Sequence record: SRR22947725_3392 | DNA length: 40,543 bases | Reading direction: 5' to 3' (one strand) | Shown here: piece after piece, positions 9,193-13,087 of the stretch | How positions within the stretch are numbered: the first letter of the stretch is position 1 | Layout: every line of letters starts with the position of its first letter | Program-made: the position numbers and the translations under genes | The notes under the pieces: model-generated | Databases searched by the model: none | What the model was told of the DNA's origin: nothing | Seen by the model: only the letters and a program-made list of their open reading frames with translations

Positions 9193-10461
9193 ATGAGGCT
9201 TTTTGCTGCGTTCGCTATCGCAAAGTTTTTGCGTTTTCTCACGCGGTTGCGTGGGGGCGGATCCGCTTTCCCCGGTTTTGTTCTCTTGCGTCTGGTTCCC
9301 GACGCCCTGGAGCGCGCAGTGGGGTCCCTCCCGCGGGGCGTGATTTTTGTGACCGGGTCAAATGGGAAATCGACAACCACAGCGATGCTGACGGAGATTC
9401 TGCGGGCCCACGGCCTCCGGGTGTTTTCTAATCCCGCCGGAGGGAATCTGCCGCAGGGTCTTGCCTCGGCTCTTGTCGGCGGTGCGAGCCTGCTTGGCCG
9501 GGTCGCAGCCGATATTGCCGTGCTGGAGGTCGATGAGGCCTACGGCCCCTCAATTTCGGACCTGGTCGCCCCCGACTGGGTCGTCATCACCAATATTCAA
9601 GTGGACCAGCTCAATCGCTTTGGCGAGCCCGAAGCGGTCTATCGGCTGCTCCTCACCCTGGGCCATCGGGCCACAGCGGGTGTCGTTATTAACGGCAGCG
9701 ACCCAAACACCACGGCTTTGGGGGCAGAATTGCATGCCACGGGGACTCGGGTGGAGCAAATGCAGGTGAGTTCCGCTGCGCAAGCCACGGCCGCCCACGG
9801 TCTAGTCCCGGCACCACTTTTTTTTGATCCCACACCGAACCTCGCTGTGGCGCCGGGAGTCGTCGTTTCCGCCGTCCACGGTCCACAGGCGAGCCTCGAC
9901 GTGGCGGGCGCTGTGTGGAAGGTCACTCTGCCCCAGCCGGGCCTGCACTATGCCGTGGATGCCGGTCTTGCGATGGAAATGGCTAGCGTGGTTCTGCAGG
10001 ACTTTCAGCCAGAACGGGCAGTAGCAGCGCTGGAACTCGGGGCCGGTGTCTATGGCAGGGGAGAGGTCATCCGCTATCGGGGGGTTGATATCTCGTTGAC
10101 CATGATGAAAAATCTGCCCAGTCTTCAAGTGAACCTCGACGCTTTTCCCGCCCCGCTCGAGAACGTTTTTATCGCCGTGGATGAGGGAACCCCGGATCCG
10201 TCATGGATTTTTGATGTGGATACCCGCTCGCTCGCATCGGTCTCGGTTTTGAGCGGCTCAAAGGCCTGGCAGTGGGCCTTGCTACTCGAACACCGTGGAA
10301 TTCCCTACGGCGAGGTCATCGAAGACTCTCGCGCTGGCTTAGATGCTTTTATCAAGAACTCACCGCCCCAAGGCGGCCCACTTCACGCAATCGTGAATTA
10401 TGAACAGATGATGCGTATTCGTCGAATTGCTGGATACAAAGAGTTGGAGGGAGCTCGATGA
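9193..10461 (+). CDS. murT: MurT-like Mur ligase family protein (lipid II D-Glu alpha-carboxyl modifying), no Cys zinc finger
   Basis: GGGSAFPG, P-loop TGSNGKSTT, LEVDE, DQLNRFGE, GRGE, MKN, DPSWIFDVD; followed by a GatD-like gene. Confidence 0.85.
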   Translation: MRLFAAFAIAKFLRFLTRLRGGGSAFPGFVLLRLVPDALERAVGSLPRGVIFVTGSNGKSTTTAMLTEILRAHGLRVFSNPAGGNLPQGLASALVGGASLLGRVAADIAVLEVDEAYGPSISDLVAPDWVVITNIQVDQLNRFGEPEAVYRLLLTLGHRATAGVVINGSDPNTTALGAELHATGTRVEQMQVSSAAQATAAHGLVPAPLFFDPTPNLAVAPGVVVSAVHGPQASLDVAGAVWKVTLPQPGLHYAVDAGLAMEMASVVLQDFQPERAVAALELGAGVYGRGEVIRYRGVDISLTMMKNLPSLQVNLDAFPAPLENVFIAVDEGTPDPSWIFDVDTRSLASVSVLSGSKAWQWALLLEHRGIPYGEVIEDSRAGLDAFIKNSPPQGGPLHAIVNYEQMMRIRRIAGYKELEGAR

Positions 10462-11189
10462 GCACCTTCACCATTGCGCGACTGGTGCCGCGGATGCTGG
10501 GGTTGAATGGGTCGTCCCACAACGCGTCCATTTTGGCGAGCTATCTCAAACACAGTGGTCACACCATCGAGATCGTCGATGTTGACGCCCCAGAGGATGC
10601 CCCGGCCCGGGTCGACGCGGTGTGTGTGGGCAGCGGGTCTGCATCGACCCTTCGGCCCGCAGCAACCCTCATCATCCCTTTGGTCCGGGTGCTCGCGCAG
10701 TGGCGCACCCACGGCGCCCACGTGGTCGCCGTGGGGACCGGGTGGGACCTCCTCGGTCACACCGTGACCACCCCGGAGGGCGAAGTGTTACCCGGTGCTG
10801 GAATATTGCCTTCGCACGCGAATCACGGTGGCACACGGTTTTCCGGGGAGGTTGCCGGTGTGGATTACCAGGGTCGCGCTAGCGCGGGGTATGTGAACCA
10901 GGTGGGGCACGTGAAGCTCGAGGGCGGAGCAAAACCGCTCATGGAGATTGATGCCCCAGAATCCGGATATCCCCGGGAAGAGGGCCTGGTGGGGGACAAT
11001 GTGTTCGCCAGCCGTGTGGGAGGTCCAGCCTTTGCTCTCAATCCCCACTGGTGCGAGGACGTTGCCAGCTCCCTACTTCAGGCGCGAGGCGAAACGCTTC
11101 AGCGGACAGAATTTCACTCCCGAATTGACCATGCTGCCAGGGAAGCTCGTCGCCTCATCGAAGCCCGATTGGGCGTCGCTAGGAGCTGA
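10458..11189 (+). CDS. gatD: GatD / CobQ-like class I glutamine amidotransferase homolog lacking catalytic Cys and His
   Basis: ATGA overlap with murT; GatD-like layout (VPRMLGLNG..N, VGSG, AVGTGWDLLG, LPGAGILP, GYVNQ, EG...NVFASRVGGP..LNP). Confidence 0.8.
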   Translation: MSTFTIARLVPRMLGLNGSSHNASILASYLKHSGHTIEIVDVDAPEDAPARVDAVCVGSGSASTLRPAATLIIPLVRVLAQWRTHGAHVVAVGTGWDLLGHTVTTPEGEVLPGAGILPSHANHGGTRFSGEVAGVDYQGRASAGYVNQVGHVKLEGGAKPLMEIDAPESGYPREEGLVGDNVFASRVGGPAFALNPHWCEDVASSLLQARGETLQRTEFHSRIDHAAREARRLIEARLGVARS

Positions 11190-12237
11190 AGCGTCGCTCC
11201 ACACGAGAACTCATGCTGGAGACGACCTCATCACCGATGGTTCCCGCCCACCTAGCCCAGTCTTCAGCGCTGGGGCTCGTCTCATCCCCCCACAGCGTGA
11301 CGATGTCTCCGAGTGCGACGCGGGCTTCGTGGGGTATTCCGATCACGAGGTGATCCACCTGCACTGACTGGAGTTGTGCTGGCGAACCTCCTAGCGAAAC
11401 CCACCCCGTGTGAGGGGGGAGCGGGAGGAGGCCGTGGCCATAGCCCATTCCCACCCAGGCCAGGTTCTGCTCGGTATCCACGTGACTCACGCGGGCACGA
11501 GCGGCCATAACGGGGGCAAAGCCCATGTCGGCGGGTGTTCGCTCATCAAAGGGGCTCACCCCGTACACGCTGATTCCCACCCTCACCATGTCCAGCCGAG
11601 ATTGCGGAATATCGGTCGCAGCGGCAGAGGCGGCAATGTGGAGAATATCGGGAGAAAGCCCTACCGCCCGCGCTTTCTCAACTGCACCGTGGAACCGTTC
11701 GAGAGATTCCAGGTTTTCCTCGGTGGAGGTGTCAGAAAGGTGGGACCAGATTCCGCGCACCCGCACGCGCCCACTTTTTTCCATGGCCGCTGCGGCTTCG
11801 CAGAGTGCGACCCAGTCGCCTTGGAGGGCGCCATTGCGGTGCAGTCCGGTATCAATTTTGAGATGGAGCGAAACGGGCCCCCCGGTTGCTTCGTGAGCAA
11901 GCTTGTCGAGTTGCCACAAAGCCGAAATCCCCAGGTCAACCCCGGCGCGTTGAGCCTTGGCGAAGTCGTCGTGGGGCGAGAGAAGCCACGCCAACAGCAT
12001 CGTGTCGCCGACGTGTGGCCTCAAGCGAACCCCGGACTCAATATCCAGCACCGCCAGGGATCCAGCTCCGTGGGCCAGCGCTGTGGTGGCGATGCTGACT
12101 TCTCCGTGACCGTAGGCGTCGGACTTCACCGCCACCATCAACTCTGCGTCACCGGCCAGGGCTCGCTTCGCCTTCGCCACATTGCTTGCAAACGCGGCGA
12201 GGGAAATGTCGATCCAGCAGGTGGCTTCTACATCCAC
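11179..12237 (-). CDS. Alanine racemase-family PLP enzyme with intact Lys barrel and degenerate C-terminal domain
   Basis: AVKSDAYGHG, HLKIDTGLHRNG, WSHL, RVGISVYG present; the SYG (Tyr265') and GRxxMD motifs are absent. Confidence 0.88.
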   Translation of the reverse strand: MDVEATCWIDISLAAFASNVAKAKRALAGDAELMVAVKSDAYGHGEVSIATTALAHGAGSLAVLDIESGVRLRPHVGDTMLLAWLLSPHDDFAKAQRAGVDLGISALWQLDKLAHEATGGPVSLHLKIDTGLHRNGALQGDWVALCEAAAAMEKSGRVRVRGIWSHLSDTSTEENLESLERFHGAVEKARAVGLSPDILHIAASAAATDIPQSRLDMVRVGISVYGVSPFDERTPADMGFAPVMAARARVSHVDTEQNLAWVGMGYGHGLLPLPPHTGWVSLGGSPAQLQSVQVDHLVIGIPHEARVALGDIVTLWGDETSPSAEDWARWAGTIGDEVVSSMSSRVERRFSS

Positions 12238-12848
12238 GTTCGCATCACCCGAGTCGCAAGACGGGATTGCACCGCTCCTGTTGGGCGGCGGGACCAGAGT
12301 GACCAGTCAGAAAGAGTGGGGCTTGCTCCCCAGATGGTGACGCTTTCACCGAGATCAATGGGGGAATCACCGACATCGAGAATGCACTGATCCATCGCGA
12401 TGCGGCCAGCAACTGGGAAATCGATGCCTCTGATGCTCATCCGAGCTCCCGGCGAGGCGGTGCGCGGGACGCCATCGGAAAATCCGGCGCTGACCAGAGC
12501 CAGCGTCGTCGCGGTGGCGGTGCGATATTCGTACCCATAGGACACGGGTGTTCCCGGACCTACCCGCTTGAGCGAGATCACATCCGCCTCAAAAGTCACA
12601 AAAGCCTCGGGAGAATCCCACCAGTTCGTGAGAGCGGTCTCAGAGACGGGATCGATCGGCAACACCGAGGCTTCGGAGTCTCCGGGTGAGGCGACGACGC
12701 GGGCAAAACCCACCTCAGCGGCAATTTCGGAGGTTTTCGCGAGCCCTAAACCGTATGCGTTGGCTCGTAGATCGAGAGTTTCGTGCGCCCCACGAAGGCT
12801 ACCCAGGTGCTCCCTGAGCGCCTGGGTGTTGATGAACGCTCGGCGCAC
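12228..12848 (-). CDS. Alanine racemase C-terminal-domain protein (barrel largely deleted)
   Basis: LDLRANAYGLG (PLP Lys replaced by Arg), then PVSYGYEY, GFSDGVPR, GRIAMDQ; 206 aa; overlaps the downstream alr-like gene by 10 nt. Confidence 0.85.
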   Translation of the reverse strand: MRRAFINTQALREHLGSLRGAHETLDLRANAYGLGLAKTSEIAAEVGFARVVASPGDSEASVLPIDPVSETALTNWWDSPEAFVTFEADVISLKRVGPGTPVSYGYEYRTATATTLALVSAGFSDGVPRTASPGARMSIRGIDFPVAGRIAMDQCILDVGDSPIDLGESVTIWGASPTLSDWSLWSRRPTGAVQSRLATRVMRTWM

Positions 12849-12853
12849 AGGAG

Positions 12854-13087
12854 CTAGCTGGAGTGTTCGGATCGGAGACGGTCAGTCTCGTCGTGCCAGG
12901 CAATAATGCTCGAGCCCAGGGTCTCACGGTGCTTCGACGCGTGGTGTCCACAGAAAAGAAGTTCTCCTGATTCAAGAGTGACGCGAACGTATGCTTGAGC
13001 GCCGCAGCTATCGCAAAGGTCGGTGAATCCGAGAGTTGCTGCGGTCTGAAGGGGGGCTTCCGTGGTTTCCGGTGTGGCGTACGACAT
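12854..13087 (-). CDS. Small putative zinc-binding protein (DUF7455-like) divergent from parE
   Basis: CDSCGAQAYVR...LLFCGHH motif; AAGGAG SD. Confidence 0.8.
   Translation of the reverse strand: MSYATPETTEAPLQTAATLGFTDLCDSCGAQAYVRVTLESGELLFCGHHASKHRETLGSSIIAWHDETDRLRSEHSS

Follow-up and report, generated by a model that had tools for sequence, protein, structure and literature searches.

A two-gene locus of Microbacteriaceae that probably encodes a one-site heteromeric enzyme of the alanine racemase family

Alanine racemase (Alr) is an antibiotic target and a textbook homodimer. Its two chains are arranged head to tail and form two active sites, each of which joins the barrel of one chain, with Lys39, Arg136, His166, Arg219 and the cofactor pyridoxal 5′-phosphate (PLP), to Tyr265′, Met312′ and Asp313′ of the partner. 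Here, we describe two adjoining genes, A and B, that divide these residues between two proteins. The genes lie in a 40,543-nucleotide stretch of DNA from sequence record SRR22947725_3392 (hereafter the window). Both products belong to the same fold and family as the solved Alr and DadX enzymes (1VFH, 1XFC, 1SFT), two-base chemistry is expected of them, and their predicted head-to-tail contact runs through the same residues. Whereas the canonical enzyme consists of identical chains with two sites, A and B are unlike chains with one complete site. B lacks about 180 barrel residues, A lacks the tyrosine loop and the Met-Asp motif, and an Asp replaces Tyr354 of the canonical enzyme. From retained residues and structure models, the A-B complex is probably a PLP racemase with a single composite site.

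Mutual dependence between paralogous chains is known from other enzymes. For example, the trypanosome deoxyhypusine synthase DHSc/DHSp is an obligate heteromer with a degenerate paralog. In mixed dimers of ornithine decarboxylase carrying K69A and C360A, two dead fold-type-III chains reportedly rebuild one live site. Trypanosome S-adenosylmethionine decarboxylase (AdoMetDC) and its prozyme form another obligate heteromer with a degenerate paralog (PMC5201418). The likeness to A and B lies in the duplication of an interface-spanning homomer whose copies became mutually dependent. The differences are that other enzymes and organisms are concerned, and that A and B are both degenerate in complementary ways. 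B has, moreover, shed a whole domain, and the A and B design recurs split, fused and mirrored within one bacterial family.

More recently, three architectures have been distinguished among alanine racemases: the canonical or DadX form (type 1), the VanT form (type 2) and a MurF′-Alr chimera (type 3) (PMC13726279, July 2026). Like A and B, these are domain variants of the same family, and type 3 also ties Alr to a Mur-ligase-like partner. In the part of that text available to us, none of the three has its catalytic residues split between two polypeptides or carries an additional C-terminal domain, and the word ‘heterodimer’ is absent. A search of the full-text literature, with subscription journals and supplements outside its reach, turned up no alanine racemase described as heteromeric, split or pseudo-dimeric. 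In source annotations, A is named ‘alanine racemase’ and B either the same or ‘alanine racemase C-terminal domain-containing protein’.

Complementary halves of an active site

Gene A (11179-12237, minus strand) is an intact open reading frame with a GTG start that encodes 352 amino acids (aa) and supplies the barrel and the lysine. Its product covers the entire Ala_racemase_N profile (PF01168, positions 1-220 of 220, 171.1 bits), and its match to Ala_racemase_C (PF00842, 52.2 bits) begins at profile position 28 (28-126 of 127). A aligns to the solved Alr chain 1VFH with an E-value of 1.9e-48 and scores 184.5 bits against TIGR00492, the NCBIfam alr model, above the cut-off of 168 and thus within the alanine racemase family. 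Residues were typed by alignment to solved Alr chains and by comparison of columns with a profile of 29 full-length relatives. The PLP Schiff-base lysine is Lys38 (codon 12124-12126, minus strand; ctt on the plus strand, AAG as read), the equivalent of Geobacillus Lys39, and it lies in the predicted interface with B. The PLP-contacting residues Y42, R134, H166 and R219 correspond to canonical Tyr43, Arg136, His166 and Arg219. Together with K38 and G335-D336-E337, they are invariant across an alignment of 44 A-type sequences.

The C-terminal domain of A is degenerate. At the site of the deleted Tyr265′ loop (11431-11493, minus strand; aa 249-269, RVSHVDTEQNLAWVGMGYGHG), 17-19 residues including the catalytic Tyr are gone. 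What is left fills 10 of 27 profile columns without a Tyr, so the chain carries no second base of its own. The GRxxMD motif has decayed to QSVQVD (11353-11370, minus strand; aa 290-295), which aligns as QS-VQVD, is one residue shorter and has lost the Arg and the Met; the A and B pair has the motif only through the GRIAMDQ of B. The segment TIGDE (11227-11241, minus strand; aa 333-337) places Asp336 at the canonical Tyr354 position. The inner-layer Tyr354, an alanine-specific feature of the family, is thus replaced in A by an invariant Asp.

Gene B (12228-12848, minus strand) is likewise intact, starts with GTG, and encodes 206 aa comprising a complete Alr C-terminal domain with the Tyr and the Met-Asp motif. 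Its sole Pfam match is Ala_racemase_C, over nearly the whole profile (2-126 of 127, 92.9 bits). TIGR00492 scores 81.1 bits on the C-terminal domain only, which leaves B by itself outside the family model, and that domain aligns to solved Alr (1VFH) at 1.7e-17. Of the barrel, a start remnant of ∼80 aa is left, and about 180 residues, including those that contact PLP, are gone. Over its first ∼55 residues, B shows a weak alignment to the beginning of solved Alr chains and has an Arg in the lysine column: the remnant of the lysine motif reads LDLRANAYGLG (12744-12776, minus strand; aa 25-35), with Arg28 for Lys. The second catalytic base is Tyr104 (codon 12537-12539; ata on the plus strand, TAT as read) within VSYG (12534-12545, minus strand; aa 102-105). 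GRIAMDQ (12387-12407, minus strand; aa 148-154) corresponds to canonical Met312′/Asp313′, and GFSDGVPR is also retained. Across 43 B-type sequences, 31-72% identical to B of the window, R28, V102-S103-Y104-G105, D125, G126, R129, G148, R149 and M152-D153-Q154 are invariant.

The two co-oriented genes overlap by 10 nt (12228-12237, minus strand), with the TAG stop of B inside the first codons of A and the GTG of A at 12237. The open frame of A begins at 12306, and this GTG is the earliest possible in-frame start. Overlaps of 4-31 nt occur in relatives, and the 10-nt overlap is likely the site of translational coupling of A and B. An earlier note, made from the letters of the window, had proposed two intact frames with this overlap, an A with Lys38 and the full barrel, and a loss from A of the Tyr loop and of GRxxMD. 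It had also proposed a B with almost no barrel and Arg28 at the lysine position that nonetheless keeps VSYG, GFSDG and GRIAMDQ. The coordinates, codons, Pfam matches and alignments given above bear out each of these points.

A predicted one-site complex and its recurrence in relatives

We propose that A and B are two subunits of one PLP-dependent racemase of the alanine racemase family. A would contribute the barrel with its PLP and Lys38 as the D-side base, and B would give the L-side base Tyr104 together with Met152-Asp153. The second, mirror site would be dead, with no barrel in B and no Tyr loop in A, and would persist only as an interface in which the N-terminal remnant of B lies against the C-terminal domain of A. 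Translation of the two subunits would be coupled through the overlap. Complex formation between the two proteins is very probable, and neither is expected to work alone. The recurrence of the two-part design, split or fused, in many relatives makes it most likely that A and B form one enzyme.

Structure prediction supports, but does not prove, binding of B to A. A, B and PLP were modelled with custom alignments in three runs alongside three controls, and the interface score ipSAE was 0.95 in all three A:B runs, against 0.39 for the best control. Of 80 solved complexes, 58 reached the mark set for ipSAE, as did 2 of 110 mismatched pairs. The predicted local distance difference test (pLDDT) of the partner was 91-92, and at least 93% of contacts were common to the runs. 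In the model, A residues 38-39, 42, 85-90, 129-136, 168-170 and 331-345 contact B residues 89-106, 116-130 and 151-156. The Tyr104 loop and Met152-Asp153 of B land on the Lys38 pocket of A, the placement that the earlier note had asked a complex prediction to look for. Met152 of B is predicted to contact A 42, 336, 337 and 340, and A 336-337 to contact B 123, 129 and 152. On the mirror side, B 28-32, 54-57 and 188-200 contact the degenerate C-terminal domain of A at 263-272 and 294-295. B may thus retain an RA(N/D)AYGxG motif without PLP because the motif serves as the contact surface of the dead mirror site.

The pair is widespread among the relatives of the window, whose organism is a Pontimonas-like member of the Microbacteriaceae on the evidence of source names for its nearest named relatives. 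The reference genome nearest to the window (G001, 1.3 Mb), with 50% of sampled words in common, holds the same A and B pair, and its B is 94% identical to that of the window. Occurrence was counted in 251 Microbacteriaceae genomes from 101 genera by profile searches with A and with B, each with 150 matches listed (248 further rows for B, 197 for A); the genome counts below refer to the matches listed. A rows were typed by length, as the DNA span divided by three minus the profile span, and locus genes were called by scanning every long frame against Pfam, as picking by third-position GC content (GC3) was unreliable in high-GC loci. Some ‘whole-length’ tblastn matches of B (e.g. in G040) were false, having run on into full-length genes, and the counts were therefore redone with profiles. 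Scores in the A-profile search fall into two groups, with the 51 rows of the A clade at 382.9 bits or more and canonical Alr at 376 bits or less. At least 49 of the 251 genomes and at least 28 of the 101 genera carry an A-like gene, and at least 39 of the 251 genomes have an end-to-end B match.

Co-occurrence of the two halves is nearly complete. In 36 of the 49 genomes with an A-like gene, A pairs by coordinates with a listed B row. Twelve of the other 13 have a donor of Tyr and Met-Asp that lacks the Lys, either fused to A or immediately upstream of it in the same orientation, and at the thirteenth locus the contig stops 45 nt past the gene. A Tyr-donating partner is thus adjoining or fused in 48 of 49 A-like genomes. 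From the side of B, an A-like neighbour was found at 40 of 41 B frames of fetched loci, the remaining frame lying at a contig end. This agrees with the pair conservation that the earlier note had put forward as a check. Among 1.84 billion protein representatives, the B profile matched 18,023 at E ≤ 0.001. The 144 typed among the best 150 comprise 78 short B-type proteins, 36 ordinary full-length Alr, 15 two-copy proteins, 12 other single matches and three B-like parts of long proteins. Some individual entries need care: in a Pontimonas metagenome-assembled genome (MAG; L065, 4088-5399, plus strand), A is split over two frames by a frameshift or an assembly error. Two loci with Pontimonas-like B-A pairs (L060, L067) are filed under an uncultured Enterobacterales MAG and an uncultured Cellulomonadaceae MAG and are probably mis-binned.

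Both genes are under purifying selection. The ratio of nonsynonymous to synonymous substitution rates (dN/dS) is 0.117 for A and 0.125 for B between L059 and L060, 0.079 and 0.201 between L052 and L083, and 0.207 and 0.193 between L050 and L069; it does not exceed 0.63 in any of the 60 pairs listed. Absence or neutral decay of the short gene in relatives, which the earlier note had named as evidence against a heterodimer, is contradicted by this conservation and by the low dN/dS. Trees of the A barrel and of the B domain (FastTree, midpoint root, no support values shown) contain the same sub-groups, for example (L056, window), (L066, L062), (L093, L090) and (L067, L046), which fits inheritance as a unit. 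A C-domain tree built in the same way did not separate descent of B from canonical Alr from descent from the paralog with Asp at position 354. The loss of about 180 barrel residues from B and of the Tyr loop from A, in cells that have a canonical alr, might be expected if a tandem duplication were falling into decay, with B a pseudogene fragment, A crippled and neither functional. That explanation is very improbable: every relative examined has both reading frames intact, close pairs give dN/dS values of 0.08-0.3, the catalytic columns do not vary even at 31% identity, and the pair extends over at least 28 of 101 genera with conserved synteny.

Apparent intermediates between a canonical Alr and the split pair survive in relatives. 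A full-length paralog, here called TD, lies directly downstream of canonical alr in at least 16 sampled genomes, among them Clavibacter, Herbiconiux, Subtercola, Cnuibacter and Planctomonas. Its housekeeping locus reads glmS-acpS-alr-TD-tsaE (L035-L044, e.g. G084:C1; L075-L078, L082, L087 and L102). TD has every catalytic residue and an Asp at the Tyr354 position, and in the barrel tree it clusters with A and away from canonical Alr; among the matches listed, no B row was found in any of the 16 genomes. Intermediate forms of A in G044 and in Conyzicola retain the loop with its Tyr replaced. Intermediate partners in G175, G098 and G041 have a full-length barrel that has lost the Lys and the other PLP ligands. 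Such a dead full barrel is also fused in frame to A in G239 (L145) and G099 (L146), and in P0371, P0403, P0447 and P0452. These fusions of 716-795 aa have Ser, Arg, Asp or Gly in place of the Lys and retain the Tyr and the Met-Asp.

The two-part form has also arisen in mirror image and as other fusions. In four Agreia genomes (L070, L073, L081, L084), the housekeeping locus reads glmS-A′-B′-tsaE. The upstream A′ lacks both the Tyr loop and GRxxMD, and the downstream B′ has a Thr at the lysine position, has lost most of the barrel and retains the Tyr and the Met-Asp. Agreia bicolorata has six alr-model matches, which are accounted for by the A′-B′ pair and a window-type B-A pair, and the alr-model search found no intact alr in it. 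Nor did this search find an intact alr in G115 (2.7 Mb, one contig, 99% complete; L045), where the matches are confined to a single frame in glmS-acpS-[fusion]-tsaE. The model of the G115 fusion has a mean pLDDT of 89.3, a predicted template modelling score (pTM) of 0.91 and disorder only in the linker at 358-374. Foldseek placed its first copy on Mycobacterium tuberculosis Alr (1xfc_B; TMt 0.89, root-mean-square deviation 2.7). Related to it are 29 proteins, 600-680 aa long, several of which are annotated as alanine racemase from Pseudoclavibacter or Gulosibacter. In all 29, the first copy has the Lys without the Tyr, and the second has no barrel and has the Tyr, Arg, Met and Asp. The housekeeping racemase itself thus appears to have a two-part form in Agreia and in the Pseudoclavibacter/Gulosibacter group. 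Fusions in the order B then A are also found (P0391, P0394, P0400, P0444, P0445, P0491), and a model of P0394, built from 10 sequences only, has a pTM of 0.86 and a disordered linker alone. Both modelled fusions are thus predicted to fold into a single body.

Complementary retained residues, co-occurrence, similar groupings in the A and B trees, and fused forms, the marks of a reciprocally degenerate heteromer, are all present. The earlier note's central proposal, that duplication and reciprocal degeneration produced a heterodimer with a single site, gains support from conservation, selection, intermediates, fusions, the mirror split and the model. Its picture has to be amended in two respects. 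A and B are not the only Alr of the cell, and alanine is unproven as their substrate. In G001, a canonical alr (270.1 bits) occupies the locus glmS-alr-tsaE-tsaB-rimI, which makes A and B a second system, and G030, G080 and G044 similarly combine a canonical alr with a B-A pair.

A could instead act by itself as a one-base PLP enzyme other than a racemase, such as a stereospecific deaminase, an aldolase or a transaminase-like enzyme, in the form of a homodimer or monomer, with B unrelated or regulatory. Every PLP-binding barrel residue is present in A, canonical alr already supplies D-alanine, and Tyr265 mutants of Alr retain side reactions. Such an enzyme would, however, leave unexplained the invariant Tyr104, Arg129 and GR.MDQ of B, the partner at 48 of 49 A-like genes listed, the fusions in many lineages, and the state of Agreia and G115, in which the alr model matched no intact alr. 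We regard it as quite improbable. The A-B complex could also form and yet be catalytically dead, a pair of pseudoenzymes serving as a sensor or regulator that binds, for example, a D-amino acid or PLP. Replacement of Tyr354, a PLP-phosphate ligand, by Asp would fit such a role, as would the fact that some congeners do without A and B. A mere binder would not need both bases and all PLP-contacting barrel residues, which are invariant. In addition, the version that retains Tyr354 is the sole Alr-family gene of G115 and occupies the housekeeping locus of Agreia, where it must make D-alanine unless there is another route. This explanation is unlikely.

Several points weigh against a one-site racemase made of A and B. 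Alr homodimers have already been solved, and the high ipSAE of the A:B model may be a memory of the family interface. The dN/dS of the window and G001 pair, which is 0.23 for A and 0.32 for B, is based on 25-29 substitutions per gene. The B-then-A fusions come mostly from single metagenome contigs, in which frameshift errors across the overlapping genes are possible. The distribution is patchy within genera: in g99, the pair is present in G100, and G177 and G240 have one Alr-family match each among those listed, which makes the system dispensable. Canonical alr in G001, G030, G080 and G044 likewise means that the pair is not needed for D-alanine. According to published accounts of Tyr354, its replacement by Asp removes a ligand of the PLP phosphate and might weaken rather than retune catalysis. 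Finally, metatranscriptome contigs from three studies cover parts of A and B, and one RNA-library contig (X15, 515 nt, 19 differences) spans the A/B junction at 12007-12521. These contigs are no proof of transcription, and are a weak sign of expression because carry-over of DNA is possible. Stretches of A that no contig covers are uninformative. Another contig over B (X17) ends at 12371 in a 17-nt loose end that resembles a T7 promoter, an artefact of the amplification primer.

Substrate and genomic setting

The residue at position 354 bears on the substrate of the pair. In two reports, Tyr354 is described as contacting the PLP phosphate and, together with Tyr265′, as restricting Alr to alanine (PMC4542195, PMC3485190). 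The same sources give Asn696 at this position in the serine racemase VanT, Thr391 in the lysine racemase Lyr and Ala393 in the broad-spectrum racemase Bar (PMC4542195, PMC3485190). A resembles these enzymes in the replacement of the inner-layer Tyr of helix 10, which in them is reported to widen or retune the pocket. It differs in that VanT, Lyr and Bar are homodimers with both bases in each chain, whereas A-type sequences carry an acidic Asp or Glu. Every A-type and TD sequence examined has an Asp or Glu at the Tyr354 position, for which reason alanine is unproven as the substrate of the window pair. Tyr354 is retained in the Agreia-type and A′-B′ fused forms that resemble housekeeping enzymes. 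The preferred substrate of A and B may, on this residue pattern, be other than alanine.

A and B could be a second alanine racemase, a DadX-like isozyme with the same substrate. A scores above the TIGR00492 cut-off, its pocket is canonical except at position 354, and the Agreia-type and fused forms seemingly serve as the housekeeping enzyme. Against this stand the Asp or Glu found at 354 throughout, given that a Tyr there is reported to set alanine specificity, and the retention of Tyr354 by precisely those forms that look like housekeeping enzymes. An alanine isozyme is a real possibility, at somewhat less than even chances.

A different substrate would connect the pair to its neighbours. Downstream of A, and convergent on it, lie genes for a MurT-like ligase (9193-10461, plus strand) and a GatD-like protein that lacks the catalytic Cys (10458-11189, plus strand); they are given here as context, and no role in the enzyme is implied by their position. 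Of 28 distinct loci whose flanks are long enough, 24 have a MurT-like/GatD-like pair immediately after A. In Agreia bicolorata L135 (G122:C1, 6330-10457, minus strand), MurT, GatD, B and A stand head to tail in an operon-like arrangement. Where solved GatD has ICGG, the GatD-like protein of the window aligns with AVGTGW. The Cys is missing from nine of 10 Microbacteriaceae sequences (the window, L046, L047, L051-L054, L150 and L151) and present in G006 (L152). This loss suggests, as far as the alignments go, that the MurT-like enzyme no longer works on glutamine-derived ammonia in these bacteria with B-type walls. A literature search found no paper on MurT/GatD in B-type walls.

On this basis, A and B might be a racemase for a wall amino acid other than alanine that acts with the MurT-like neighbours, a tentative and rather doubtful proposal. 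Candidate substrates would be 2,4-diaminobutyrate, ornithine and lysine, with Asp336 reading the side-chain amine. The D-diamino acid product would feed the B-type peptidoglycan cross-bridge of Microbacteriaceae, and the MurT-like ligase would join an amino acid, not ammonia, to the α-carboxyl of D-Glu. For Rhodoluna, which is close to Pontimonas, one study reports D-Ala-D-Dab and Gly-D-Glu peptides and a B-type wall (PMC4156110). Among the matches listed, the small genomes G010 and G110 have a single Alr-family match each. The part of a taxonomic review available to us (PMC6113628) yielded no wall data for the genera needed.

The wider setting is unremarkable. The window is ordinary core chromosome, with the gene order glnA, sucB, lpdA, pepA, sigA, MurT-like, GatD-like, A, B, DUF7455, parE-like and parC-like. 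The DUF7455 gene (12854-13087, minus strand) lies 5 nt upstream of B and may be co-transcribed with it. Among relatives, this gene remains beside the divergent parE-like gene, including at a locus with the Alr pair 2.5 kb away (L048). Every locus long enough to show it has a parE-like gene upstream of the pair.

From homodimer to heteromer within one family

The comparison across Microbacteriaceae points to a repeated, possibly independent change from a two-site homodimer to a one-site heteromer or pseudo-dimer, which in some genera has included the essential housekeeping racemase. A textbook homodimer would thus have been rebuilt within one bacterial family as a one-site enzyme of unlike parts, encoded by two genes, by fusions with either half first, and in mirror-image form. 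The claim that the window pair works in two parts is open to simple co-expression and complementation tests. With living intermediates at each step, these bacteria offer a natural, datable series for the change from homomer to obligate heteromer after duplication. This series bears on whether such a change is adaptive or a ratchet.

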